DNA from: Sphyrna mokarran
Taxonomy: Eukaryota
Assembly: GCA_024679065.1 (NCBI GenBank)
Contig: JAGIQG010000004.1
Coordinates: 50,220,001 to 50,284,000 of the forward strand
Length of the DNA stretch: 64,000 bases
Direction of reading: 5' to 3'
Shown: positions 3,920 to 53,387 of the stretch, in pieces
Numbering within the stretch: position 1 is the first letter of the stretch
Layout of the letters: each line of letters begins with the position of its first letter
The notes under the pieces: generated by a model
The model's database searches: none
The model's input: the letters and a program-made list of their open reading frames with translations, nothing else
What the model was told of the DNA's origin: nothing
Made by a program: the position numbers and the translations under genes

Positions 3920-5760
3920 AGTTCTCTTTACCAGGAGATAAGGTAATGGTGAAACTCATGACAGACAAAAAGGGGCTAGTAACTCACTGGGAAAGGCCTT
4001 TTTCTGTGCTGGTTACAAGGTAAAAATATCCTAATTGTTGAGAAGTGTTGCCCATGCTGGACTCAGTTAAAGCTGTAGTTCAGTGGTAAGCCTCAAGGTA
4101 GTGAACCTGACAGTGATTATAATAGTTAAAGTAGAGAAAATCTGATTAGATGGAATTTATTCTGATTGCTAATTTTAAGGCTGTGAGGTCATCAATGTTG
4201 TATTGTAGATTATTGCCAGCAGAAGAAATCTGGAGCTCTATTACAACTCCAATCAAGTGCAGCCTGACATTCCCCATCAGAAGCAAGTCAAGTTGCAAGT
4301 GTGTGGTGCAGTGATTATGCAAGTTTTGTAAACAAGCTGTGTTATTACCTGACATTGATCAACAATTGTGTTTGATTGTAAGACAGAAGTTAGAGACTGC
4401 TATAATGAATGCACATGATTATATCTTTACAGAATGAATGTACAGATTTTGACTCAGGTGAGACCAGCACCTGAGGTCCTTCATTGTTCCCCTTGAGAGA
4501 AATGTGTTAATACTTGTGTATGACACTCACACTTTGACCAGTCAGGCAAAGTGTTGGGTATGTTTGCACATCTCCATACATCCAGGAGGGGAAAATACCT
4601 TTACAGCCAATGGCCATGACATGGTCAAAATTGGTAAAGGTGAGTCAAACAGCACAGAATTCCAAGTATCCTGGACATCCGATACCAGGATTCATCAGTA
4701 GAGAAGTAAGGAAAGAATTTCAGTAACATTGAGTCTTGTGCAGGGAGATTAGGTCATATAAACATATCTATAACATGGGAACCCAGCTCCTAGTTTAGTT
4801 TTTAAAACAGCCAACCCCAAAACCAAAAGGGAAATATTGTGCTAGAAATATGAGAGGCCAACAAGAAAACTTAGGCATGAATGATTGCGACCACATGGTA
4901 GATCAAGCCACTCAGCAATATCTTGAGTCCATCCAATAATGACCAATCTTACAATATTTCTCATTGTTTTAGAGGAGGCAACATTTATCCAACTCCCAAT
5001 AGAACATATTGGATTTGTGGGGATAGGATATATCCTTGGCTTCCTGTGAAATGGAAGAGGTCATGTTATGTTGGATATGTAATCCCATACATATCAGACT
5101 CAAACTCTCTCTCCTGCCAAGACATCAACAAGCTACTAAGAAACAGAATGGTTCCATGGCATATTGTTTCTCCAATATGAAGTAACTAAAGCAGTGTATG
5201 AAATTCTGGGTCTGCACTCCATTTTGGAACGAGTCACCACTAATACAGCAACTGCTCTTGCTAGGATAAATGATGAGATGATAGCCATGCGTACAGTGAT
5301 ACTTAAACACAGGTTGGCATTGGATTATTTCTTGGTCGCAAGAGATGGGACTTGTGCAGTAATTGGATCTGAGTGTTGCAAGTATATACCAGATACTTCA
5401 GAAAACTTAATTGATTTGATTAGTCATATCTGGAAAGTGATAGAGAAACTCAAAGACCCTGAACCATTTACCTTAGCTGATTGGCTAGCTCCTTGGGATC
5501 ATCAATCCTATAAGGGATTGCAATATCCTTCATGGTGATCTTGGTACAGATGGTTCTTAATGTAATTAAGTGTGCCTGTGCAAGGTTGTCCAAGTCCACA
5601 AAAGGGATGGTACCTGTGATGGCATTAAGGTGAGCAAGCATAACACAAAGGGACTAATTGTTCTTCAAGACACAGAAACAAACATTAGGACTTCTATTTA
5701 GTGGCCTAATGTTGGGCTACAGCTAAGGGCCAAAAGCAGGGATAATGGGGGCAGTATAGA
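3920..5760 (+). mobile_element. Second ERV remnant: integrase C-terminus, env and PPT-like tract
   Basis: PGDKVMVK near 3930; CWVCLHISIH at ~4550; YWICG..YPWLP..W..SCYVG at ~5005; ORF 5164-5538 with LKHRLALDYFLVARDGTCAVIGSECCKYIPD; purine tract at ~5731-5744. Confidence 0.85.
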
Positions 5761-8298: not shown

Positions 8299-10379
8299 AT
8301 ATCTGGTGCTGCGAGAGCAGAAACCAATATCCTGGGTGAATTCTGTGGGGGACTGAAGAAGTGACCGAGCCACGACCTGAAGAAGAGACGGATGCTGGCA
8401 TGAGATAAGATTTGTCTTGGTCTATCTCTTTATCTCGGATCAGTGCTGTGACCCTTCATCCCTTATGGAGGACACTGACAGGTGACTGTATTCGAACCTA
8501 AATTATATTGTGCATAGTGACCCCCTTGATCTCATGTGGATTTGAATCAAGGTTACATAAGTTTATTTGGGCAAGGAACCCCTTGATCTTGTGCAGATTC
8601 AGATCAGGGTTATACAGACTTAGGGGTCAGGGACCCTGTGATTTGATTCTGGTACTACTTTGGGTCAGGGATCCTGCAATTTGATTTTGCTACCAGGAAA
8701 TTTTATTACCATTTTTGCCAGGGACACGGTATACTGACATTATGGGACAGATTCCTAGACAAGACACAGGTATTATCTGGTACATGACTGTTTGGAGAAG
8801 AAGGGGAATTTATCACAACAGGAGGCACCCAAATCAAACTTGGCCAGCTTTATTAGAGGCCAGTGAGCTCCCATCAGTAAAGAAACAAGCAGGCTGACTC
8901 CATATGGTAGAGAGAGGGCGTAATTTGATCGAGAGCCTGGTGTAATAGGGTATAGCCAATCGAAGTGAATTGCTTCAAGTTTAATAACTTGCATACAGAT
9001 CAGACAGATTTGAGTTCTGCCATTTAGGAAAGGTGGCATTACATTACATCTGAAAAGTTATAAGGACAGTTAACCATTTAGGCACACAGTAGATTTGATT
9101 TTGTACTTGGCCTGTGTTGGTTACAAAGGCAGAGCGGTGGAAATTAATCAGATTGCTGCACATTAGAATGCTTTCAGTATTTCTTTGTGCATCTGTGCTC
9201 CAAGTGATAAGATCCAGTTGTGTGCTCTTGTAAAATGTTTTGTTTTAATGTGCAAGGGTCTTAATTTAGTAGGGATATTTAAAGATGATAAAAATAGATC
9301 TTATTTTGGATTTTCTGGATCAGGCTTTTGTAAATTTAAAAATCTATTCTAGATAGGAATAATTCTTTCATTGTCAGTTCTAAGTGTTTGAAGAGTCCAT
9401 CTGAGTGAACTTACACCCCTGCCCTTCTGCTGTAATGAGCAGAGAATTAACCCATTCTGTCCCAGACAGCATAGATCTTAGTGTTTATAAGATTTGCAGT
9501 AATTTTAGGACAAAGTCAAAATTTTTAAAAAATCTAACAGAAGAGGGAGTTACATAAGATAGAATAGGAGCACATGTTTAAACATGTGCAATTAGTGAAT
9601 CAAACAAACCTGGAGTAGAGCTCATCATAAAGCGCACCCTGTTGTAATAATTTTTATATTTCAGTGTCTTCATGTGGTTTGGTCATTTGTTTGTTTTTGT
9701 GGAGTATTTATTGCAAACATTAAATGCAATGCTTTATATTTCAGTTTAACTTCAAAGGGGCTGAGAAATTGTGAAAACTGTTAAAGTATAAGATTTTTTG
9801 AGTATAATTACAGTTTAGAAGAAAGATGACTTTACCCAAATGCATGTTGGAAGCTACCATGTATGTTTCATAGTGGTTGCATGGATATTTTCTTATTTGC
9901 TTTAATGTTTTTCCCCTAATTGTGATATTACAACAGTGGGTTTGGTAGAGTTAAAATGAAAATTGGAAAGTAAATTAAAGTTTAAGAAATGATATTGACT
10001 TGAGGGAACTACGTGCTCTTTCCTTTGTCTTGAAGTAGAAATTATGCGAGAGTTAATTGAGAAGTTAAGGAATAAGTAACTTCACGGAGAGATTAGGCTA
10101 GGTACCACGAACAATCATTAAGTTGGAGGGATAATGCACATTGAAGAGGGATTGAGGCATGTGTAGATGGCAAGTTGAAGGATTGGGAAACTTTGAAATT
10201 GGGAAATGAAACGTGATGAGATGAAAAGACAAGTAGAGGGCATGAAGCCATTGGCTGATAGGCAGGTTGGGCTAGCTCATCAGAGTAAACAGGAGGATCC
10301 TCCCAGTTGCCCTGGCATGCTGCTGTTTCCCTATTCAGGCAATACAGAGGAAAAGGAGGAGTTGACCCCTAGACCTCTC

Positions 10380-11660
10380 CTTTGGGTTAAAAATCTCCTT
10401 GATGCTGTTCAGCTTCCTTGCCAATTGGCTGTTATTAAATGTGTTGCACATACAAAAGGGGACACTTCTTGCAATTAGGGAATGCCTGGGCTGATTCAGC
10501 TGCCAAGGCAGCAGCTATATTGGCCTCTGTTCCCACTGGAGGTAATCAGGCTCTAAATTGGGTACCTGCATTAGGGACAAAGAGTATGCCAGAGATAACT
10601 GAGCCTCAATGTTTACAGAGGGACACCTCTGATTCTGAGCACACAATGGAAGTCAATGGTATTCATACTCCTGGGCATGGGACCTCTGGCTTGCTTCAAT
10701 TAAGTTTGTATTCTGGATTCTTTATTACCAGTACTTATTGACTATTTTTATTCTTGTATCCACCTTGGCAAGGAGGGAATGGGACAGCTACTTCTAAACT
10801 TGGTGGCACACAGAGTTGAATACAGCAGCACAAACGCAGCTGGATCGATGCTTCAATTTGCATGAGAAATAATAAGGGTAAAGGAATTAAATGCCCTGTT
10901 GAAACCACTTCCTTGCCAGATGGCCCTTTTACCTGTATACAACTTTATTGAATTACCAAAAGTACATTGCTATAAATATTGAGTAAATGGATTGAAGCCT
11001 TCCCCACCAGGAATTGTACTGCACATAGTGGTGAAATTGTTGTTGACAGAAGTTATTCCCCATTGAGGTCTCCAAAATGGTGAGCTCAGATTAATACCAA
11101 ATTACACAGTACTCAATCAAACAACAACTGCAATGCACATATCCCCCACAGCCAGCAGGAATTGTGGAAAGGGCTAATGGAACTTTAAAAGAAAAATAAG
11201 CTAAATTGACTGAAGAAACTGGATTAGATTGGCTAAAGGTATTGTCCTTGGCACTGTTTCACATGCGAGTGATTTCCCCATTCACAGACCAGACTGGCAG
11301 CTGCAAAGATAGTCTACGGTCAGTCAATAAGGACTCCCTGGAATGCCCATAAAAAACCACTAGAGGGAGTATATCTCCAGGTAGTGGGGGAACAGTTGCA
11401 GAATTATTTGAAGCAATTAACACTTTCTTTGAAGTTTCTCCACTCCCTGGTGAAACAAGCACATCTTCCCAACAGCAGGGACAGCCACCTCTTGACATCC
11501 CATGATCAAACCCAAAGACTACATATTGGTAAAGAATTGGGATAGAAAGAAACTAGGACAAAGCTGAAGCAGACCTTTTCAACTACTACTGACCATGATG
11601 ACTTCTGTCAATCTTGAAGGGTGTCCAAGTTGGATACATTCTTCTGATTAGTAGAAGATT
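10380..11660 (+). pseudogene. ERV pol remnant (RNase H C-terminus and integrase)
   Basis: LLDAVQLPCQLAVIKCVAHTKG..GNAWADSAAKAAA; WIEAFPT; YPPQPAGIVERANGTLKEK; multiple stops and frameshifts. Confidence 0.85.
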
Positions 11661-11679
11661 GTCTCCAACACAGGATGAG

Positions 11680-12640
11680 GATCTTCATATTTTGAATATT
11701 TGGACTTAATGGACACATGGTAGTCAAAAGTCAAGCTACCCAAAGACTGCATGCTAATACTTCATATATGTATGCTGAAAAATTGAATATAAGCAGAGTT
11801 GGGTTTGTACCCATATCCCCATCCATTCAAAAGGAGGAATACCTCTCTAACCCCTCCCATTCCATTTACCAGAGACAGTGGAATGGATTTTGTCAAAATC
11901 GAACAGGAATTGGGGGAGATGTGATAAAATGGAAATCAGCTGGCTACAAAATGACTAGGTTTTCAGCTTGGTACCAGCCTGTTGCTGGTAATTGTCTTGT
12001 TTCCAACCTCCTTTATTATCCCCTCAAATGATGTTCAAGGTTCCCTATGTTTTAGTAAACCAGGGAAAGGAAAGTTGATGGGGCAATGTAAATGCAACCT
12101 TATAGCTGAGTGGCAAGGATCAGTAGCAAATCTATCTAACAAGTTTGTTTGTTCTTTATTGGTCCAAGGTATGGAATATAACCTCCAAATAGCTCATGGG
12201 CACATACACTCCCAATACCCTGGATGACATTGGCTGATGATTTTACTGTCTATAATAGAAAAACTGGCAAACATAACAGCAGCAGAAGCCAGGACAACTG
12301 GATAGGCACTGGCTGAGGTCTCAGCTGAGCTGGTGGCTGTTTGGACTGTGGCACTACAAAATCAAATGGCTTTGGACTATCTATTAGCCCTGCAGGGAGG
12401 AATGTGTGCTATTGCAGGTCAGGCATGCTGCAATTATATCACAGACCTCAAAGTATCACCAACTTGGCTTCTTACATCAAGAGGCAGGCTAATCTGCTTC
12501 AGGAGGTTGGCCAGGAATTTCATGACTATAGCCCACTGCATTGGTTAGGTCACAGATTATTTGATTGGATCTTTAAGGCTTTTTGCTACTATTACTGTTA
12601 CTTGGGATAGGATTGCTTGTTTGCTTATGTAGATGCATTA
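11680..12640 (+). pseudogene. ERV env remnant, gamma-type
   Basis: Frameshifted (C)WVCTHIPIH SU motif; immunosuppressive domain and CX6CC in ALQNQMALDYLLALQGGMCAIAGQACCNYI. Confidence 0.88.
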
Positions 12641-17085: not shown

Positions 17086-17140
17086 ATGGGAAAGTGGATT
17101 CTCCTGCACGCTGTGCTCACGGCCGCAATCCTCCCTGCAG
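17086..17140 (+). CDS. Exon 1, signal peptide MGKWILLHAVLTAAILPA
   Basis: ATG in good context (caacATGG), hydrophobic leader, phase-1 donor CAG|gtgtgt. Confidence 0.85.
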
Positions 17141-20100
17141 GTGTGTGTCCCGGAAACTAAAGTGCAATATCTTCCCATTCAAGAACATTTGACAGTTTAA
17201 TTCTCTTTCAATGGCGCTCCCTCCCTGATCATTTGGGGATGTAAAAGGTTTCAGTGAGTCCTGAACTTGTGCAAAGTGTTGTAGTGTGAAATGTTAACTC
17301 TGACACTCTCACTCGATAGATTCTGCTCGCCTTGCTGAGTGTTTGCAGTGTATTCATTGCTGATACTCTTTTTCTCCCCACAGTTGCTGCGAATCCCACT
17401 TTCCGTGTGGGTCAACACCCAGAAGTGCTGAACACGAGCAGAGGCTCCAATGTGACTTTCTACTGTAGCTTCCCATTTGCCCGGGACATTTCCACTGTCC
17501 GGGTGAAATGGTGGAAAGAGGGCGAGCGGAGTTTCCTCCAGGCAAAACGTGATAGAAGATATCGATTTGAAATACGGAATAAAGCCAGCGCTGTCTTTAT
17601 GCTCCTGAATGTGGATGTCCCGGACTCCGGCCGCTATTACTGTAGAGTTAGCAACGAGGGCAAAGCGGACAATGGGACCGGCACAAGGCTGCTAGTTACC
17701 GGTGAGTGACTGACAACTGAAAGTATTTCCTGCAAAGTGAGAACAACCCTGGGAAATGTAACTGGAGCTCATCCCGCCACTGCAAGCCCAGTCTCAGTCC
17801 TTAGTGAGGTTACAGATTAGTCAGAGAGATAGATTAGGGTCAGCACAGCGATTCTAAACATTAACACTGAAATCATTGACCGGGGTCAGGAGTGCTCTCC
17901 CTGGTAGTGAGCTGGAGGCAGCTCCAATCAAGGCATTAAAGAGGATATTGAATAGAAACAAATGTGCAGGGATACGGGGACTATCGGCAATAATCCTGGA
18001 TTTTATTGGAATATTTGTTTGGGGACTGAGTACCCTGGAGCTGAAGAGTTTGCTTTCCTCTGGAAATCCTGCTGATGGAGGGTCGCTGTCTCAGAAATCC
18101 TCAGCCCCTAAGCTGCAACTTTCAATAGAAGAGACCGGTCAGGTTTCTGTCTTCTTCGCCTGTGTATCTCACCGCCAAAAATCTAAATTGGACAAAATAT
18201 ATTCAGACACAGAATGAGAATCCAGCAAAACTTAAGAGAGTAAACAAAACTGTGAGCTTTTCAGCATTTTTAAAATCTTTCGCCTGAAAATGACTGACAG
18301 GGATCTGGAATAAAATTCATCCCACTCATTAGCAGACGTTTTAACTCGTTTATTTCACGTCATAAATTTGCAATGACTCAAGGTTTGTTACAAGTTAACT
18401 TATTTGCAAGATTTCAAAGACACACTTGTTTATCAAATTTCTCCCTCGGTCATTTTCCTTTTGGTTGTTGTTGCATCTGTCAAAAACTTCATTTCTGAAC
18501 TGGATTAAATAACATTAAAATCGGAGCTATTGACAGACTATTAACTAAATTAATCTGGAAATAAAGTTGTATCATAGCAAGTAGAGAAGGAAAGTATTCA
18601 GTTTGACTGAGGAGAAAGATCCCGTTCTTTTTCCGAAAAGAAGTTCCAGGAATTAGTCTCATCCCGAGATCCAGCTGCTGATGTTCAAAATGAGTTTAGG
18701 ATGGTTTGGAAATCTCTCGGAAAGAAGGTAGTTCATCTTCAGATACATTCAGGAGTGAGACTGGATCCATCTTTCCGCTGTGTCTGTTTTACTTGGACAT
18801 TTGAAGCTGCTTTCTTCATCTCTGTCTCTGCTCACGGGGACAGCCTCACACCGAGAGACTCTTTCCCGTTTTTTCCCGGAATCTCTCGCCTCATTCTGTA
18901 AACCTAACCCTCTCTGTAGACTGTCACCTCAATAGAAATATGAAAGGTCCAAGATACGCAAAATATATTCCATGTAACTGACACATTCGAGGGTAGCATG
19001 GTGGGACAGTGGTTAGTACTGCTGCCTCATACTCCAGGGACCTAGGTCCAATTCCCAGCTTGGGTCTCTGTATGGAGTTTGCATGTTCTCCCCGTGTCTC
19101 CGTGGATTTCCTCCGGGTGTTCCGGTTTCCTCCCACAATCCAAAGATGTGCAGATTAGGCGGATTGGCCATGCTAAATTGCCCTTTATTGCCCCTTAGTG
19201 TCCCGGGCTGTGTATGTTAGAGGGATTAGCAGAGTAAAAATGTGAGGTTTCAGGGATGGGGTCTGGGTGGATTGTTGTCGGCGCAGATTCGATGGGCCAA
19301 ATGGCCTCCTTTGCACTATAGGGATTCTATGATTCTATGACACTATCTGGATATTAAAGGTTGATCCTTGTGTGTTAAGACTCACATCACGGCCAGAGAG
19401 ATGTCAGGATCCTGGCACTTTGAAATTATTAATGACTTTTCGATGTAGAATTTCATCAACAGTCAGTAGCAAGCAGAGGGAGTGAACTGAGTGTTGAGCG
19501 CCTTATAAAGAACAATCAGTTTGGACTTCGAACGTACCAGCAAAGTATTAACAGTAAAGGGGTTTATTATTAAACTAGGGAAGAGGTTGGTGACAATTTC
19601 AACTGTTGAATGACTGATACGAACGTATTTGCAAAATGTATTCAGTTTATTCATTTTATTCTGTGTGACACTTTAAGCCATTCAAGGCTTTGAAATCAAC
19701 AGGAGTGTTCTCAGAATGACTCAAATTCCCTCTGATATTTTAGTAATTTCCGTTAGCTTTCCACCTGCACGAAGAGGTGTTTCTATGTTCTCACAGGAGG
19801 GAGAAAACCAGAGCGAAAGAGAGAAATGAGGATTTTGAAGGCTAGAATGAGTTGCTGACCCAGTAGAGGTGTTGGAGGGAGAGTTGGAATTCGCATAGAG
19901 TGAATGGGCCACTGCTGATGGGATCAAACAACAGTGACCCAACTGTGAATATATCCGCTGAGCATTACCAAAATGGGATGGGGGCAATCAACGGACAGAT
20001 TTGAATATAAGGATGAGGATTTTGAATTTGATTGTTAGGAGGGAGGGGGGTGAGATCAAGGGAAATCGACACGCGCTGGGTGGGGGGAGGGGAGCGGGTT

Positions 20101-23100: not shown

Positions 23101-26100
23101 TACGAGTGGGAGAGAAATAATTGAATACGAAAAAGATACATGTTTTCAGAGTGAAATGAAGCCAAGAGAACGATTAAAGGTGGGTTTGAATGAAATCTGA
23201 TGAATTTCCATCAGAATAATGTGACATTTCTCTCCTCCGCTCCCGAAGCTCCCCCCGCTTCTCCACAGATTGTCCCCACTCTCTTTGGAAAAGAATCGCC
23301 GGTTTTCCTCAGGCTCGCCTGTAACTCCGGCACATTTCACTCCAAGGAGCTGAGCTTCAAATGGTTTGTGAACGGCTCCGAGATTGTAAAGGGGATCCGC
23401 ACAGAGGCAAAGCCATCAGGACCGGGCGAACTCTTCCAGCTTTCCAGCTTTCTGGAGGAATCGCAGCCTGTGCAGAATGGGACAGTTTATACCTGCCGAG
23501 TCTCCTACCTGGACAGCCAGATGCAGACCCATTACACCTACATGTCCAGCCTGGCAGGTATGGTCACTCTAAGAGGTCGCGAATCTTGCATGTCTTGTTA
23601 ACTGATGTGATGGACAGCATTGAATTTTAGATTTCCTGGGGGGCACTGGGTGGGAAAATCTCCTGTTTTTATCGGGAGGGGAAATGATGAAGGACTGAAA
23701 TAATTCGATAATTTAGATTGGAATCCTAGATGATATTTTGGATGACTCCGCCTTAGTGACAATGAAAACGGCACTGACTTTATTATTCAGTGCAGGCTTT
23801 ACTAAATGGCCAGAACCGTCTATATGGAATGTCCTGGCTGAAAGGGTGGATGGGGGGAACAAGAATTTTATAAAGGCTATTGGATATCAATCCGAAAAAA
23901 AAGGGATTTGTAAGGAAGAGAGATTCAAATGGAAATAACTAGATTAGTCTTCCATAGGTAGGAGGGGCCAAGTGGCCGCCTCCCGTGTTGCACGTTTGCC
24001 CTATCAGTGGCATTTCCCTTTCCAAGTAGAAGCGGCAAGCTGAAATGTTCTGGGCGCATGTTTTTTAGCATTAGAGTGATCCAGTAACGTCCATTCCCCA
24101 CTTTGGGGCAAGAGCTGACTGAAAACATTGAAATAAGAGATGCTCACACCCGTTCACATTCGCAGCGCTGATGCCAGCCGGCAGAGTGATACAATAGAAC
24201 CTGCCCGTTTCATATTAACGCAAAAGATCACCAACCTAACAGTTAACTTCATTCGAAGTCACTCGGATGGCATTGACCTTCATTGATAAGAAAGTGTTAA
24301 CAGCGCATCCATATTCATTAGAGAGTGAAGAACCCAAAAAACAATGTCTAGTTTTTGCGACAATGTGACCTGGAATTGAACAAGCACGTGTATTAATATG
24401 GTACATGTTTCTGTTTAAAGTGCTTCAAGAAAAGAACTCTTTCTCCAAATGCTTTCTTGAAACCTTGAAACTTCTTCAAGGTAGCAATACTCTTATCCTT
24501 TGGGAAAACTCCTATAGTTGAGAAATTAAAATAGAAACTGTTCGATTTTAAATGGCATTGACACGTTTTAAAAGCAGAACTCAGGGAAGAGTGAGCTTTT
24601 ATGGTGAATGGGGGCACAATTAGAACGGGAGAGGAGTGAAACGAGAGAGGAGTAAATTAAAACATTTCTCCTTTACTCAATACCCCATTGTCATCCTGAC
24701 AATTTTAACAATACGTGCGTGTTTCTAACCAATATTATTTGCACCTACTATGTTTACTTACCAGGATGTGGTAACAGTCAGATTAAATCATACTGTGTAT
24801 CAGTGCTTGAATTAAGTGTTGAAAGATGCATATGTTGTATTGTTCACACATTTCCTGTGATGTAATATAACTATTACATTGAGTTAAAATATTTGCGCTT
24901 TGACATTTTGCAGAGCGAAAATCAGACATTATACCCTGGTGGATCTATATCTGTATCGGGAGTGGGGCTCTCCTCCTGCTCTTGATTATTACATCAATTA
25001 TATGTAAATTCTGTGTATGCAGAGGTAAGCATGCTGGAATTTGCAAAATGGTTTTGATTTCGAATTTTCAATATATTTGATTTTTAACACGTTACAGTAA
25101 ACTGAAGTGATATTGTAAGTGAATTATATTTGTCTGAAGTAACTGTTTTATGGATTTCAATAACATGTTTAGTGAACACTGAGAAAGTGTCTGTAAGCAT
25201 GGAGAAGTCTTCAGTGATAAATGTTATTGCATTTATTGTGCATCACTGGACAATCTCTTGTTAGGCATGACATCCACATGTGAATAGAATCCATTTTGTA
25301 GGATCTCACTAAATGCAAGAGAGGCAAACAGATGAATCACTGCCAGAGATACTTGCGCTATGTATTGCATCAAGTATCCTAACATGACATATTTCACAGT
25401 GCACTCCTATAGCCTAGTTCTGCCCCATGGTAAATATGACAGAAAAGAGTTGTATTTTAATTATTGCAAGCGCAGTATGTACGTTATCCTGGAGTCATGT
25501 TGTTTCCTTACAAATCTACAAGTAAAATTATGGTAACACTCCTTTATTTCAAATGCTTACATGTTAGATTTTCTCAAAAGCTTTTTAAAATAATAAATTC
25601 TGCATTTTATCAATAGCAAAGACCATAAAGTAACGACGTTATATAGGTTACATCGGGTTGGTTCCAATACATCCAAAGGCCATGGACCACATCAACTTGT
25701 AACCTAGATAAAGGATACTATTCAAATATTGGGCTCACTCCCATTCATCCTCACAATCTAGATATTGGAGATCATCTTACCTTCCTTCATAATCTTGAAT
25801 AAGAGACCAGCTTGTGATGTTGAAGCTAATTGGATCTATCGAGTAAAGTTAATAATTAACTAAATTTAATTAGATTAATTCATATTCAGGCTATTTGCTT
25901 TGAGGAATAGCTGGTATTGACTCTAATAATTATTACTGAGACTCATTTGATTGCCAATTGATATTAATCAGTTGTTCTGAGCTGATGTGTAGATTTTGTT
26001 TTCAAGTGAGGTGATGAGAAATGAATCATTAAAATGAATCAATGAACAATTATGTTAATAATTAGTGGACATCTGTTTTGAAAAATAAGAGCTCTATTAA

Positions 26101-27461
26101 ATTATGAAATTGAGATGTTTCCATTAATTGATGTAGTTCACAGGCAGTAATGCATTGAAAGGCAATTTGCTAATGTTTAAAGTTTTAAGTCATTCTATTT
26201 ACTATCCATTTATTCTAGGCAAACAGAGGAAAAGAGAGAAAAGATGTGTTCAGGAAAAGCAGGTAACTTCCAATAAGCATTTTAAAATAAGCTCTTCTGA
26301 AATCCCTTAACGAATTTTGTGTAAAATAAAATACCCTAAACAACAAAAAAGAAAATTGAGATTATGCAACAAAGGTTTTCATTGAATTTTGCTGTGGTCA
26401 TTTCATTTTGAGTCCTAGGCATAAGTAGAATGTAATACATAGAAATTATTATGTTCCCTTTGTTATCTTGTTGGATTATTGAGTGACTTTTATTTATATA
26501 TGTGCATATGTATATTTAATCATTCACCTGGAAGTATTAACTCATGCTGGAGTAGAACTTTATAGACTAGGTTTCCTCTGGTACCTTATTGAAGTGATGT
26601 AGAGATGTCAGTGTTGGACTGGTATAAACACAGTAAGAAGTCTCACAACACCAGGTTAAAGTCCAACCAGTTTATTTGATAGTAATCTCACAAGTTTCAG
26701 AAATAGTGTTCTTCCATTAAGTGTGTGGAAGGTTCTGATCAGACAAGGGCATAAAAAGTCACACATAATTTACAGAATACTGATTAGAGTGCAAATCTTT
26801 ACAGCTAATCTGCTATTCAAATCTTAAAGATGCAGACAATGTGAGTGGAGACAGCATTAGCAAAAGTTAAAAAGATGTATATTGTCTCCAGACAGGACAG
26901 TAAATCAGATTTTACAAGCCCAGGCAAGTCATGGGGATTACAGATAGTGTGACATGAACCCAAGATCCCGGTTGAGGCCATGCTCATGTGTGTGGAACTT
27001 GGCTGTCAGTCTACTGAGCGATTCTGTGCTGTTGTGTGTCGTGAGGGCCGCCTTGGAGAATGCTTACCCAAAGATCTGATCATGGGTTGGGTTGCAACCA
27101 AGTACTCACAGAAAAGGCTAGCAGTCAGGTGAATAGTGAAAGTAGAAAAAGCCTGGGCCAAGCACAATCCATTTTCTTGTGGGGCACAGAGGGATTTGGA
27201 TACTATCAAAATCAATCTCCTGTCAATCTCTTTTGTACTATTGTCTTGCAGCATATGCAAAAAGCAGCTAATAACGAGATGGTATATACAGCTATGGATT
27301 TCAACAACCTAGCTAAAGACACAAAGTACCAGCAGATGGAGAAGAGAAAAGCATGTCCCCATCTGCCACCAAGAAACCAGCAGAGAGGTGACAAGGTCGT
27401 TTATGCAACACCCCCACCCAAACAATACCAGGGCAGAAAGATGGGCCGCTCTGTGCAATGA
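17086..27461 (+). CDS. Six-exon IgSF type I membrane receptor: signal peptide - VJ-type V domain - C1 domain - TM - tyrosine-motif tail (SIRP/NKp30/VJ-C1-like), 348 aa
   Basis: Exons 17086-17140, 17384-17701, 23249-23557, 24914-25024, 26219-26262 and 27252-27461 total 1047 nt (348 codons + TGA). All introns are GT-AG with phases 1,1,1,1,0, and the joined frame has no stop. Confidence 0.9.
17384..17701 (+). CDS. Exon 2, V-set Ig domain with germline J-like G strand
   Basis: Acceptor ttttctccccacag; motifs VTFYC, VKWWK, DSGRYYC and NGTGTRLLVT; phase-1 donor G|gtgagt. Confidence 0.95.
18990..19340 (+). mobile_element. HE1-like tRNA-derived V-SINE in intron 2
   Basis: tRNA-like head (ggtgggacagtggttagtact), V domain, (gattctat)n tail. 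Confidence 0.9.
23249..23557 (+). CDS. Exon 3, C1-set Ig domain
   Basis: Phase-compatible acceptor tttctctcctccgctcccgaag; APPASPQI...RLACNSGTFHSKELSFKWFVNG...FQLSSFL...GTVYTCRVSY; phase-1 donor CAG|gtatgg. Confidence 0.92.
24914..25024 (+). CDS. Exon 4, transmembrane segment ERKSDIIPWWIYICIGSGALLLLLIITSIICKFCVCR
   Basis: Acceptor ttttgcag, donor AG|gtaagc, long uncharged hydrophobic run, phases match the flanking exons. Confidence 0.9.
26219..26262 (+). CDS. Exon 5, basic juxtamembrane cytoplasmic exon GKQRKREKRCVQEKQ
   Basis: Acceptor tttattctag, donor CAG|gtaact; bridges phase 1 to phase 0 as needed to keep the last exon in frame. Confidence 0.8.
26596..27078 (-). mobile_element. Penelope 3' fragment in intron 5 of the IgSF gene
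   Basis: Colinear with 32957-33400 and the reverse complement of 150-610. Confidence 0.85.
27252..27461 (+). CDS. Exon 6, cytoplasmic tail with MVYTAM, KYQQM and VVYATP tyrosine motifs
   Basis: Acceptor ttgtcttgcag, in frame to TGA at 27459-27461; AATAAA signals near 27638 and 27785. Confidence 0.85.
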   Translation, partial: HMQKAANNEMVYTAMDFNNLAKDTKYQQMEKRKACPHLPPRNQQRGDKVVYATPPPKQYQGRKMGRSVQ

Positions 27462-34596: not shown

Positions 34597-34908
34597 CCAT
34601 AGAATGCCTACAGTGCAGAAGGAGGCCATTAGGTGCATTGAGTCTACACCAACAACAATTCCACTGAAACCTTATTCCTTCATATTTATCCTACTAATCG
34701 CCTGACAGTAGGCTCAATTTATCATGGTCAATCTACCTAATCTGTACATCTTTGGACTATGGGAGGAAACAAACACTCAGAGGAATCCCATACAGACACG
34801 GGGAAAATGTGCAAACTCCATATAGAGACTGACCCAAGGCTGGAATTGAACCCAGGTCCCTGGCGCTATGAGGCTGCAGTGGAAACTACTGTACCACCGT
34901 GTCACCCA
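34597..34908 (-). mobile_element. HE1-like V-SINE
   Basis: Same family core and tail. Confidence 0.85.
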
Positions 34909-34949
34909 AATACCTTTGTTCTACAGTTGGGGGTGATGAACAACGGAAA

Positions 34950-36790
34950 TAATTGAAAAAGAAAAGAAAGTTAGAATTAAGAAAATTGGAGTTCTATTCG
35001 TTTACCAATTGGCTGCATTAATTGAACAAGTCTCAGTCCACTATTGGGCTGATGACAAAGCAAAAATCAAAAAGTTGGAATCACGCTATAGGAAACTAGA
35101 AAAGAGAAACCAAATTTTAGAGGACCCCGGCTGGGAATCCTTGTCTCCCTATGGGCCGGCTGTACAACCCATGGCATCCATGGGAGACTTTGTTCGTGGA
35201 GTTAAACGCTGAGTTCGGTGTTCAGGAATGCCCGAAACTGCCGAAACAGATGGAACCTTTTTACAAGCATTTAAAGATGGGCTGTCACTAGCTCACCAAA
35301 ATATCCTTAAAATGGCAGTTCTTGGAACCCAGTTCTATGATGAATTAATGGAATGGATTTCTGGGACTAAGGATGGACCAGACGATAAACAACATCCAAG
35401 ATTAAAGCAGGACCACATAGCCTTAACTAATAGGATCAAGCTTAAGGGGATTTGTCATAATTGTGGAAGCCAGGCCATTTCACCCGGGACTGTTGGGCCC
35501 CAAGCAGAGCGGGTAAGAGGAAAATGCTTACATGCCAATTTTTCAATAAGGATGACCACACATAGGCCACTTGTTGGAGCAAATACAGACATCCTAGTCA
35601 GGCTTCCCCTGCCATCACAGAGAGGGTAAACTGACAAGGGGCAGCCCCTGCAAGTTCGAGTTAGAAGGAGGGTAGAATCTATATATCTGCATTAGTAGGA
35701 AGCCGACAATGTGAAACGCTGGTGGACATGGGAACTTCCATATCTATCACTGACCTACCCTTACCAACCACTAATAAAATGATCTATGTAAGAGGAATTA
35801 ATAGACAGAAGACTCCTGTCTGCTTAAGCGAAGTAAGAAGCCTCACAACACCAGGTTAAAGTCCAATAGGTTTATTTGATAGCTATTAAATAAACTGGTT
35901 AGGCTTTAACCTGGTGTTATGAAACTTTTTACTGCGTTTACCCCAGTTCAATGCCAGCATCTCTACATCATGCTTAAGAGAAACCATCCTAGTAGAAATT
36001 AATAACCTGTATATACCTATGTAATTTTATGATGTAAAAATAATGAAGGAACCATTATGGGAAATGACCTGATGAAGGAATATGAAGTCTTAATAGATTG
36101 TGGGAAGGACAATTTGATTCAGAAGAAAAGGCAGGGTAGGAACATACGTAAACCATTTAGAAATCGTCCATGTCACGTCTGCAATAGGACACGACTGGCA
36201 GTTAGAAGGTAACGGATTTGGCGCCACTTGTGCCTCAGTTCCAGGGGTCTGGGCAAAAACTAAACTGGATACCAAGCTAATTAAAATTAATCCCAAAATA
36301 GTAGAAGGTTCAGAACATAAACCTCACCAACAATATCCGATGAAACCTGAAGCCAAGAAGGCGGCTGAGGAAATTGTGAAGGTATTGGTGGAAAAAGGGA
36401 TCCTGCAGGAGACCACTAACTCCTTGACTTGGTAGGTGTCCAAACCAGATGGGAGTTGCTGATTAAGCATTGATTATATAGCTTTATTTAAAGTAATTCC
36501 TAAAGTGCGTCCCATTATGGTCAGTCACTCCACCATCCTAAACAGATTTTCATCATCCTGTTAGATTTTTATGGTATTAGACATTGCCAAGAGTTTTGGT
36601 CCATCCCTTTGAATTTTAATTCACAGGGTAAATTTGCTTCACAGTGGGTAATAAGCAATACACTTGAACTAGGCTCTCTTAGGGATTCCATAACAGCTCG
36701 GCCATATTTCACCAAGTAATGAATAAAACACTGAAGCAAATGGAGCTCCCAGAGGGGAGCACAATTTTACAGTATGTGGATGACATCTAG
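34950..36790 (+). mobile_element. Decayed gag-protease-RT of an LTR retroelement with spumavirus/lokiretrovirus-like RT
   Basis: Frameshifted zinc knuckle CHNCGSQ(G)HFTRDC at ~35453; protease TLVDMGTS at ~35716; RT QQYPMKPEAK, KPDGS, LSIDY, VLDIA, QYT.TRL..GFHNSSAIFH and LQYVDDI ending ~36787. Confidence 0.85.
35833..35970. mobile_element. 138-bp palindromic Penelope mini-insertion in the retroviral protease region
   Basis: Head-to-head terminal motifs; 12-bp TSD tgcttaagcgaa (35821-35832) / tgcttaagagaa (35971-35982). Confidence 0.85.
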
Positions 36791-38829: not shown

Positions 38830-41800
38830 CATATTTGATTTCTTTGCTCCTCGAAATGTAAATTTTGTTTGTTTTTTTTTTGCCAGTCCTGGATTAGAAC
38901 AGCCCTTTCCGGTAATAAAAAGTTAGCCAGTCTTAGCACAGAAACTGCTTCTTGCGGCGCACTTTTTTCCTGTAGACCTTTTTGCCAGTCAGTTTTTGCC
39001 TTCCGACTATACGGCAATATGCACAACATTCATTTAATTCGAGGCACCGAAAGCAAAATCGATAACGGCAATTGGGACACTACATCTGGACAGCCTCTGG
39101 TGCAACGCTGTGTTAAAGCCTCACAGTTAGCGCAGGCTCGTATTTCAGGACATCCATATACTGGACTTGTCTGGTCTTTGATTGTACCACAGCTCTGAAG
39201 TAGAGCTGTCAGACTGCATGCAGCATTCGTTACCGCAGTTATCGCTCTGCACATCAGTATCTTCCACTCCCTCACACACTCCCAGCAGAACTGAAAGATT
39301 TTCTTTGATTTCTCTAAGCAGGACAGACACTGAACACACTGCTTCTCGGCATCTATTCTCTGTACACAGACACTGCAGACTAGACACTGAGGGAGAAAAT
39401 GAGACAAGGTGTCAGTAACATAAATATTTGTATTTATATTCAGAATGTGAATTATGGGAACATCAATTTAGGACAGAAAAATAGGAAATACATTTTAGTT
39501 TGATATCGCCTGTTGCACTGCACAGAATAATCGAACTGACTCCGTCATGATTTTGGCAAGTTTGATTACAAATATTGCTGCCATTGTGTTAATTATTAAT
39601 AAGAACATCAGGAGTAGGCCATTCAGCCCTTCAAACTTGTTCCATCATTGTATTAGATGACAGCTGATCTGAAACTAACCCCATTTATCCACTATATTTT
39701 TAGATAGATATGCTTACTAACAGAAATTTACCAATCACATTCTTGAATGCTCCGTTAGTTGGAGCATCAACTCCCTTTGAAAGATATTCCAATTAACACA
39801 GTGGGACATTTTTAACTGCTTCCAGCTAAGTGTGTCATTTGATGCCTTCCTTTGAACATTAATCTATTTTCTTTATCATAAATCACGTGACCAAACCTGA
39901 TCATAATTTGAACCTATTTTCCTCTTTTATATCAGCATAACTTACCTGAATCTTTCAGAGATTCTTTCCACATTTAAACATATCGTCACATTGGTAACTG
40001 CTACCAGACATTGTGTACATGCAGTTATTTGCTGACTTTGTGCCAATTATCCAATGTTGGACTTATCCATCTCATTTCTTCTAAGTGTATTTATACATTC
40101 AGGGAAGTTAAAATGCATGGGAGTACATGTTTATACAAAGGATAGAAGACAAGGGATAGAACATTTCTGGAAATAGGTCACAAGTGTGACATTACAAGTT
40201 ATTTATCATTTTATTAAGTACCAATCCCTTTTGTTTCTTATTAATAGCTGCAAATAGCTAGAAGATGTTTATTCAGTATGTTCAAACCTTTTTATTCAGT
40301 TAGCATTGTTACTATTGAATGTTAGATAGGATCCTTCCCAGTTTCCATTGAGGCTGGAACTAAAACATAAATCAGAGTATCTGCGCAGAAAGTCAGAATA
40401 ATGCCATTTTGTTTTGATAATTTCCCATTTTAGTCTCTGCCCCAGCCTCACACAACACGTTAACAACTAACTGTACCAGCACTATCGTACATCTCAATAT
40501 AGCTCAGTCTCTTACATCAATCACCAGTCTTCCATTTGGATCTTGTTAATCCTGGACACTTTCTTCAGTTCTCTTCCCTCCTGAATTTTCCTGTCTCTGC
40601 ATTTCTCCATTAACTTCTTCTCATTTATAACAAAAACAAAATCTCAGCAGGTCTGGCAACATCTGTGGACAGAGGATATTTTGATTCAACATAACTCTTC
40701 TTCATGGCTAAAGAGAGGGTGAAATGTGTTGCATTCAAATTTTTACAAGTTAGTTTCATCCTGTAATTTGATTTATAGAGTTGTTGAGTCATAGAGATTT
40801 ACAGCATGGAAACAGGCCCTTCGGCCCAACTTGTCAATGCTGCCCCTTTTTTAACCCCTAAGCTAGTCACATTTGCCACGTTTTGGCCTATATTCCTCTA
40901 TACCCAAGTTACCCATGTAACTGTCTAAATGCTTTTTGAAAGACAAAATTGTACCTGCCTCTATTACTATCTCTAGCAGCTTGTTCCAGACACTCACTAT
41001 CTTCTGTGTGAAAAAATTGCCCCTCTGGACCCTTTTGATTCTCTCCCTTCTCACCTTAAATCCATGCCCTTTTGGTTTAGACTCCCCTACTTTTGAGAAA
41101 AGATATTGATTATCTAGCTCATCTATGCCTCCTCATTATTTTATAGACCTCTATAAGATCACCGCTAAGTCTCCTGCATACCAGAGAAAAAAGTCCCAGT
41201 CTAGGCAGCATCTCCTTATAACTCAAACCACCATGTCCCAGTAGCATCCTAGTAAATCTTTTCTGCACTCTTTCTAGTTTAATAATATAATTTTTATAAT
41301 AGGGTGACTAAAATTGTACACTGTATTCCAGGAGTGGCCTTATCAATGTTTTGTGCATCAACAAGATATCCCTACTCCTGTATTCAATGTTCTATCCAAT
41401 GAGACCAAGCATGCTGAATGCATTCTTCACCACTTTGTCCACCTGTGCCTCCACGTTCAAGGAGCTTTAAACACATACCTCTAGATTTCTTTGTTCTGTA
41501 ACTCTCCCCGGTGCCCTACCATTAACTGAGTAAGATCTGCCCTAGTTCAATTGGCCAAAATGCATCACCTCGCATTTGCCCAAATCAAATTTCATTGAAA
41601 CCATTTGAAACTCCATTTGAAACCAGCAAAGGTTTGGAGAACAACCCCACTCCCATTTAAGCTGCAGTATTGATGCTAATTGGGAAATCCATAAACAGGT
41701 AAGGAAATAACTAATAAGGAATTAATTAGAGGCAGTGTGGTGATCTTTCACCATCAATAGTTATTGTCACAATTTGCTTTGGATATTTTCTTGGTTGCCA

Positions 41801-52464: not shown

Positions 52465-52998
52465 TCACAGCCCATCTAAACATGAATTTCTTCTCTGGCG
52501 GTTTCTATGATGCTCTCGGAGGAAGTGTCTTTCCATGATTAAGTAAGTCATTCTTGCAAATGCATCATCATCTTTCCACATTTCATAATCCTTTTTGCCA
52601 GTCAGCTTTTGTCTTCCGGCTATACTGCAATCTGTACAATATCCATATAATTCAAGGCACCGAAAGCAAAATACATAATGGCAACGGGGACACTTCACAG
52701 ATGGACAACCTGTAGTGCAATGCTGTGTTAAAGTCTCACAATTTGGGCAGGCTCGTATCTCAGGACATCCATACACTGGACTTGTCGGGCCTTTGATTGT
52801 ACCACAGCTCTGAAGCAGAGCTGTCAGACTGCAGCATTCGTTACCGCAGTTATCACTCTGCACATCAGTATTCTTCCACTCCCTCACACACTCCCAGCAG
52901 AACTGAAAGATTTTCTTTGATTTCTGTGAGCAAGACAGACACTGAACACACTGCTTCTCGGCATCTATTCTCTTTATACAGACACCACAGACGGGACA
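52465..52998 (-). CDS. Open terminal exon encoding IBR-like and RING2/Rcat-like Cys-rich domains
   Basis: Acceptor ttttctccctcag; CPVC...CVQCLSC...FCWECVREW...CGNECC and RACPNCETLTQHCTTGCPSVKCPRCHYVFCFRCL match the RBR CPxC..GC..CxxC..FCxxC pattern. Confidence 0.75.
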   Translation of the reverse strand, partial: CPVCGVCIKRIDAEKQCVQCLSCSQKSKKIFQFCWECVREWKNTDVQSDNCGNECCSLTALLQSCGTIKGPTSPVYGCPEIRACPNCETLTQHCTTGCPSVKCPRCHYVFCFRCLELYGYCTDCSIAGRQKLTGKKDYEMWKDDDAFARMTYLIMERHFLREHHRNRQRRNSCLDGL

Positions 52999-53387
52999 CT
53001 GAGGGAGAAAATGAGACAAGATGTCAGTGACATAAATATCTGTATTTATGTTCAGAATGTGAATTATGGGAATATCAATTTAGAACAGAAAAATAGGAAA
53101 TCTGTATCATTTACATTTTTAGCATGTTACCACCTATTGCACTGCACAGAACTACCCAATATTAGCCCACTGATCCCATCTTGATTTTGATATGTTTGAT
53201 TGCTAATATCTCTGCCATTGTGTAAACTATTAATAAGAATATAGGAACAGGAGTAGGCCCTCCATAATTGCTCTTTCATTCTATTAGCTGATCTGAAACT
53301 AACCTCGTTTATCCACATTAAGCATATTTATCTAGAATATAGAGCTAAAAACAAAAATCTAGCAATCATATTCTTGAATGCTCCATT

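Follow-up and report, generated by a model that had tools for sequence, protein, structure and literature searches.

The window, a stretch of 64,000 nucleotides from a Sphyrna mokarran contig, carries on its plus strand a six-exon gene with the order leader, VJ, C1, transmembrane (TM) and tail, encoding 348 residues with GT-AG signals at every joint and consistent phases. The leader exon (17086–17140; phase 1) agrees with the leaders of the orthologues. It is followed by a V-set exon (17384–17701; Pfam V-set, E 8e-9) with a germline-joined, J-like GxGTxLxV end and by a C1-set exon (23249–23557; Pfam C1-set, E 8e-8), for which the PDB matches are immunoglobulin constant domains. The TM exon (24914–25024) encodes an uncharged core with a cysteine-rich inner edge and precedes two tail exons, a basic one of 44 nt (26219–26262) and a second one of 69 amino acids (27252–27461), starting in phase 0 behind a CAG acceptor and ending at TGA.

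The TM exon, tail exon 1 and tail exon 2 are joined at GT..AG with 0 differences in one contig of the public run X1, presumed to be RNA and used for splice joints only, which contains both joints of tail exon 1. The joints upstream of the TM exon are based on splice signals and on the agreement with orthologue models. An alternative acceptor for tail exon 2 at 27268 was dropped in view of the phase-0 end of tail exon 1 and of the contig, which is spliced at 27252. The exon at 27252–27461 supplies the tail of a surface receptor whose gene is spliced and of the non-rearranging VJ-C1 type; the exon's single match in its own genome is itself, and the tail tyrosines are Y291, Y305, Y330 and Y338.

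The juxtamembrane cysteine-rich segment (24990–25024) is kept in the orthologues and is probably palmitoylated. Among the database models, an isoform model of S. torazame (P0004) lacks the TM exon and two models of Hemiscyllium (P0017, P0018) have a truncated tail. Elsewhere in the window, two cysteine-rich open reading frames on the minus strand (39030–39467 and 52465–53079), presumably RING/IBR-type exons, are 78% identical over 129 amino acids and gave no Pfam match; the former appears frameshifted. Broken reading frames at 4902–5538, 9900–12600 and 34900–36500 resemble env-/pol-type retroviral remnants by eye, and the two of these three regions that were scanned gave no Pfam match.

Receptor family and orthologues

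A search of the genome with the V exon yielded at least 39 matches. Apart from the exon itself, these are 36 on the same contig and 2 weak matches elsewhere. The 36 others, 31–51% identical to the V exon of the window gene, form two clusters at distances of 4 and 12 Mb (G000:C993:54.19–55.03 Mb and 62.40–63.31 Mb; at least 36 V exons, some copies with stops). In the examined flanks of 90 kb and 110 kb no family member was found, and the open reading frames of at least 110 amino acids therein contained no marker genes, their matches being to mobile-element-type families only.

The paralogue tails examined are encoded by phase-0 exons with two tyrosines each. Tail exon 2 of the window gene corresponds to about one and a half of these tail units and has no intron where the paralogues have one, which suggests intron loss or exon fusion. 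For a count free of hand-picking we used 44 relatives picked solely by length and the presence of a TM segment (from P0010, P0029, P0030, P0032 and P0033–P0108), of which 26 carry a canonical ITIM, three CxH, one YxxP, one PxxPxR and none YxxM; in 10 of the 44, the TM segment or its immediate surroundings contain a charged residue. The window gene is thus a divergent member of a family whose tails mostly carry canonical ITIMs, and by its homologous ectodomain and tail scaffold it belongs to the chondrichthyan family of V-C1 paired receptors on this contig. A sister gene at G000:C993:54599173–54616959 (L032, L033, L056) shares the WWIY-type TM segment of the window gene; its tail has no tyrosine and carries a conserved CxxC (C[VIS]RC), as also observed in catshark, bamboo sharks and rays. 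The CxH of one gene might conceivably pair with the CxxC of the other.

One orthologue type was identified in 14 other elasmobranch species and in one chimaera, present as automatic RefSeq models under generic names. In a tree of ectodomain plus TM, 14 sequences form one side of a branch with 99/97 support. The chimaera branches first in this unrooted tree, which covers the sequences found before Stegostoma and Mobula birostris, and the window gene falls between catsharks and mackerel sharks on the one hand and no other group on the other. Literature searches at the family level and by orthologue identifiers returned no published description of the gene, which earlier VJ-C1 papers or their supplements may list, and the receptor family appears poorly described.

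Conservation of the tail motifs

The four motifs named in the preliminary description are all present in one plus-strand frame: MVYTAM (from 27279), TKYQQM (from 27321), PHLPPR (from 27357) and VVYATPPP (from 27396). Site 1, MVYTAMDF (Y291; 27279–27302), is the homologue of a family ITIM, with a +3 position drifting between V, I, L, M and E. At site 2, TKYQQM (Y305; 27321–27338), the tyrosine occupies a linker position, which holds His in most other galeomorph sharks. The sequence PHLPPR (27357–27374) is a class II SH3-type PxxPxR motif, and site 3, VVYATP (Y330; 27396–27413), is the homologue of the family LTYAxL with Pro at +3, matching the Abl substrate consensus. Two elements had been missed, namely a fourth tyrosine in KQYQGR (Y338; 27420–27437), which has no recognised motif and is found in 5/15 elasmobranchs, and a CxH (CPH; 27354–27362), which sits behind basic residues where the family has its second tyrosine and overlaps the proline motif.

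The TM core was confirmed to be free of charged residues, and the strict ITIM (S/I/V/L)xYxx(I/V/L) was absent from all 14 tails analysed (window gene and 13 orthologues) as well as, by eye, from the two orthologues added later (Stegostoma, Mobula birostris). The window gene is not a strict ITIM receptor. An ITSM reading of TKYQQM was rejected, with TxYxx(V/I) matched by 0/14 tails. Shuffling the 69-residue exon 100,000 times gave at least one YxxM in 26% and two YxxM in 2.3% of cases, YxxP in 30%, PxxPxR in 3.0% and CxH in 2.8%. Since the motifs were chosen after the fact, their mere presence proves little, and conservation is the test.

Conservation was counted over 15 elasmobranchs including S. 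mokarran, with one sequence per species and isoforms dropped. Site 1 reads YxxM in five species, Yxx[V/I/L] in six and YxxE in one, the tyrosine being absent from the remaining three, which are the batoids (3/3); all three batoids keep the PxxPxR and YAxP motifs. A relaxed ITIM with Met at −2 is found at site 1 in 6/15 elasmobranchs and in the chimaera. Site 2 is YxxM in 4/15 elasmobranchs and not in the chimaera. Taken together, eight species have YxxM at either site, seven and the chimaera at neither, and only S. mokarran at both.

These counts bear directly on the headline of the preliminary description, according to which two YxxM sites recruit PI3K p85 and render the receptor directly co-stimulatory, as in CD28. 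We now regard this as improbable, although the double YxxM of S. mokarran is infrequent among the shuffles, YxxM occurs in more than half of the elasmobranchs as compared to 0/44 relatives, YQQM is common to 4/5 species of the S. mokarran subclade, and CD300f is reported as a precedent for an inhibitory receptor also binding p85. The YxxM sites are not conserved, the two closest catsharks differing already at the +3 position of site 1 (E, V). YQQM moreover scores as a poor Src or Abl substrate (13.5–21.8 percentile), and the +1 residue favoured by p85 is hydrophobic or acidic rather than T or Q. The tail does not match the CD28 consensus [DEVI]YM[ND][MIVT] given in the relevant passage of PMC11599192, and it contains no YxN, hence no Grb2 SH2 site. 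The double YxxM of S. mokarran is likely a lineage accident, and PI3K binding would be at most a lineage add-on. As the outcome that would speak against it, the preliminary description had named orthologues with unconserved YxxM sites and with canonical ITIMs; the former were found, the latter were not seen.

Of all columns of the tail, those of the PI3K motifs belong to the least stable, and the proline and YAxP motifs, which the preliminary description had also noted as class II SH3 and YxxP sites, are the most stable. PxxPxR is kept in 14/15 elasmobranchs, Heterodontus having lost its first proline, and PxR in 15/15; at site 3, YA is found in 15/15 and YxxP in 14/15, Stegostoma having lost the +3 proline. 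Within the exon, residues P39, R41, Y51 and A52 are invariant (15/15), as compared to 10/15 for the median column. A different picture would emerge if the tail were a decaying ITIM scaffold with incidental motifs, in a receptor acting mainly via its ectodomain as decoy, ligand or partner chain. The quick turnover of sites 1, 2 and 4 and the database models lacking the TM exon or parts of the tail are in line with such decay, which we nevertheless consider highly improbable in view of the PxR and YA invariant throughout sharks and rays and shared with the chimaera.

Origin and predicted docking of the tail

To the profile built from 24 hand-picked, tyrosine-bearing paralogue tails, 13 of the 14 orthologue tails aligned better than all of their 200 shuffles each, the exception being Mobula. 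As the tails were hand-picked, the 24/24 ITIM count of the profile is circular, and 26/44 is the unpicked count. The alignment places site 1 on the first ITIM, CPH on the family's second tyrosine and site 3 on the next ITIM, LTYAxL, with YQQM falling into the linker and not onto an ITIM position; the family's second tyrosine and the terminal EYAE[VI] site are gone from the tail of the window gene. This homology to ITIM tails therefore supports the earlier proposal of a rewired ITIM scaffold. The chimaera orthologue, branching first, has MAYATLDF at site 1 and ITYATT at site 3, which gives the direction of change; with the tree unrooted, a course from ITIM to the current motifs would follow by parsimony from the chimaera and the relatives.

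In one alternative the receptor is still mainly inhibitory: SHP-2 would bind site 1, possibly together with site 3, the two forming a non-canonical ITIM pair that the proline motif only modulates. Passages in PMC12151841, citing Sweeney 2005 and Imhof 2006, give the SHP-2 N-SH2 consensus as (I/L/V/m)x pY(T/V/A)x(I/V/L/f) with an aromatic +5 residue, and the orthologue sequences MAYTAVDF and MVYTAIDF fit this consensus, which allows Met at −2 and has the aromatic +5. Met at −2 is also found in a paralogue ITIM (P0036, MVYATL). For the SHP2 C-SH2 domain, site 1 ranks at the 95.5–99.2 percentile in the 7 species with V/I/L at +3, and site 3 at the 85.7–99.8 percentile. Against this, the site-1 score drops to 79.6–87.1 where +3 is Met (5/15) or Glu (1/15), the batoids have no tyrosine there at all, the SHP2 matrix scores Pro at +3 unfavourably, and two of the family's tyrosine sites have been lost as described above. 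We thus consider a mainly inhibitory receptor possible though unlikely. Site 1 itself probably persists, in some lineages, as a weakening remnant of an SHP-2 site.

Our preferred explanation, to which we assign roughly even chances, is that the ITIM scaffold was rewired in elasmobranchs to SH3 and pYxxP (Abl/Crk-type) docking, rather than to PI3K. Upon ligand binding or clustering, an Abl- or Src-family kinase would phosphorylate Y330, a Crk/CrkL/Nck/Abl-type SH2 domain would bind the resulting pYATP, and an SH3 domain would hold the PxxPxR located 10 residues upstream of Y330. Two-point docking of this kind would favour an adhesion or cytoskeletal output.

Both YxxP and PxxPxR, each present in 14/15 elasmobranch orthologues, occur in only 1/44 relatives each. 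We scored the sites with kinase and SH2 matrices from the source data accompanying PMC10065799, all measured on human proteins. The YA[TS]P site ranked at the 99.4–100th percentile of the measured c-Abl matrix in all scored elasmobranchs (13/13), and the core VIYATP of four orthologues equals the core of the AblTide 2014 substrate listed in Table 1 of PMC10065799. Site 1 of S. mokarran reached the 98.8 percentile as a Src substrate and could therefore be phosphorylated. According to passages in PMC10279719, the Crk SH2 domain binds pYxx(P/L) and the Crk nSH3 domain PxLPxK; the membrane receptors DCBLD1/2 are described in part of PMC6029619 as binding CRKL through YxxP sites phosphorylated by Abl/Fyn. 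Several points temper the Abl/Crk explanation. The paralogue ITIMs already show a median percentile of 90.7 for Abl and the chimaera site 97.5, so that much of the Abl score of site 3 is inherited from the ITIM itself, and the high SHP2 C-SH2 ranking of site 3 stems from the same additive model. Furthermore, the matrices used are all human, the cited Crk consensus calls for Lys at the place of the Arg in PxxPxR and for a Leu that only 3/15 possess, and in the unrooted tree the orthologue clade does not fall within the ITIM-bearing genes.

The CxH overlapping the proline motif permits a further reading, compatible with Abl/Crk docking, in which CxH and the CxxC of Lck clasp a zinc ion, so that the receptor, in the manner of a coreceptor, would come with its kinase attached. 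[quoted passage not shown] The basic-CPH..PR context of the window gene resembles that of shark CD4 (CPH.xPR) and fish CD8 (RRCPH), as given in supplements 7 and 8 of PMC10768021; with a Cx(C/H) flanked by basic residues, as in the CD4/CD8-type Lck clasp, the element is a putative clasp. CxH is found in 11/15 elasmobranchs across 7 orders, and its Cys in 14/15, as compared to CxH in 3/44 relatives. The Lck-like gene of the same genome keeps its CxxC, followed by a Gln/Tyr-rich stretch, in the first coding exon (G000:C816, L071:9313–9432, minus strand); an early search for Lck by the CxxC pattern had given 7 matches, the best-looking of which had no kinase exons nearby. We still judge zinc clasping decidedly unlikely. 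CxH is lost in 4/5 Orectolobiformes (carpet sharks), which retain PxxPxR, is absent from the chimaera and, being three residues long, arises by chance in 2.8% of the shuffles; its Pro and His may be conserved for the SH3 motif that it overlaps.

Extended to the whole tail, zinc clasping would mean that an old, germline-encoded VJ-C1 receptor changed, in the shark-ray ancestor, from an ITIM scaffold to a coreceptor-like activating tail by means of CxH, SH3 ligand and Abl/Crk site, a scenario that we likewise hold to be doubtful at best. At the second tyrosine position a CxH would have evolved to hold Lck through zinc, in convergence with CD4/CD8, the overlapping SH3 ligand would have arisen, and the last ITIM would have turned into an Abl/Crk site via Pro at +3. 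If true, jawed vertebrates would have a third type of receptor tethered to Lck, and a switch from inhibition to activation would have come about without an ITAM adaptor.

In paired receptor families, activating members usually arise via tail truncation and a charged TM residue. The window gene appears to have taken a third path, maintained in both sharks and rays, on which the inhibitory scaffold is retained and its motifs are re-specified, with the chimaera orthologue preserving an intermediate state. A YxxM read from a single genome can be a lineage accident.

Comparison with known receptor systems

With the CD28 family the window gene shares an uncharged TM segment and a short tail with tyrosine and proline motifs. 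The pertinent part of PMC11599192 defines this family by a single extracellular V domain, a PPP-type CDR3 motif and the tail consensus given above. The window gene has an extra C1 domain, lacks proline in the segment from its second Cys to the G strand, and carries YTAM (5/15) and YQQM (4/15) instead of YM(N/D)M; it is not a member of the CD28 family. Shark CD4 and fish CD8 provide a similar arrangement of basic residues and CPH, to which shark CD4 and the window gene add xxPR, but differ in ectodomain and origin, and CxH is missing in 4/15 elasmobranch orthologues.

The SIRP-alpha/beta/gamma receptors resemble the window gene by their V plus C1 ectodomain and as a clustered family comprising ITIM members and charged-TM members, and several orthologues bear the RefSeq names SHPS-1-like or SIRP-gamma-like. 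SIRPs have a V-C1-C1 layout, whereas the window gene has one C1 exon, not two, in the gene model and in the orthologues, along with a J-like V end and no strict ITIM. NSFL1C is a neighbour gene of SIRP; we found SEP-domain exons, putatively of NSFL1C, on contigs C668 and C1326 and none on C993, the contig of the window gene, and a search for the opioid-peptide family PF01160 as a marker of SIRP synteny gave no match.

By structure the window gene is one of the non-rearranging VJ-C1 genes, such as Xenopus VJC1, chicken PRARP and shark UrIg/UrIg2, in which a single-exon VJ is followed by C1, as described in passages of PMC10751288 and PMC12227049. The window gene likewise has its V domain and J-like G strand in one exon, followed by C1. 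As compared to the shark genes in the parts of PMC12227049 concerned, UrIg is secreted with three C1 domains and UrIg2 has nine, whereas the window gene has one C1 domain and a TM segment.

In the way it may work, the window gene is reminiscent of DCBLD1/2, membrane receptors with conserved YxxP sites read by Abl and Crk-type SH2 domains, a likeness that would be one of functional analogy only. The DCBLD ectodomain is unrelated and its tail has 7–8 YxxP motifs as compared to one in the window gene, whose YxxP, unlike those of DCBLD, appears derived from an ITIM and is paired with PxxPxR. The conserved (I/V)YAxP that characterizes Abl/Crk YxxP docking receptors is present in the window gene.
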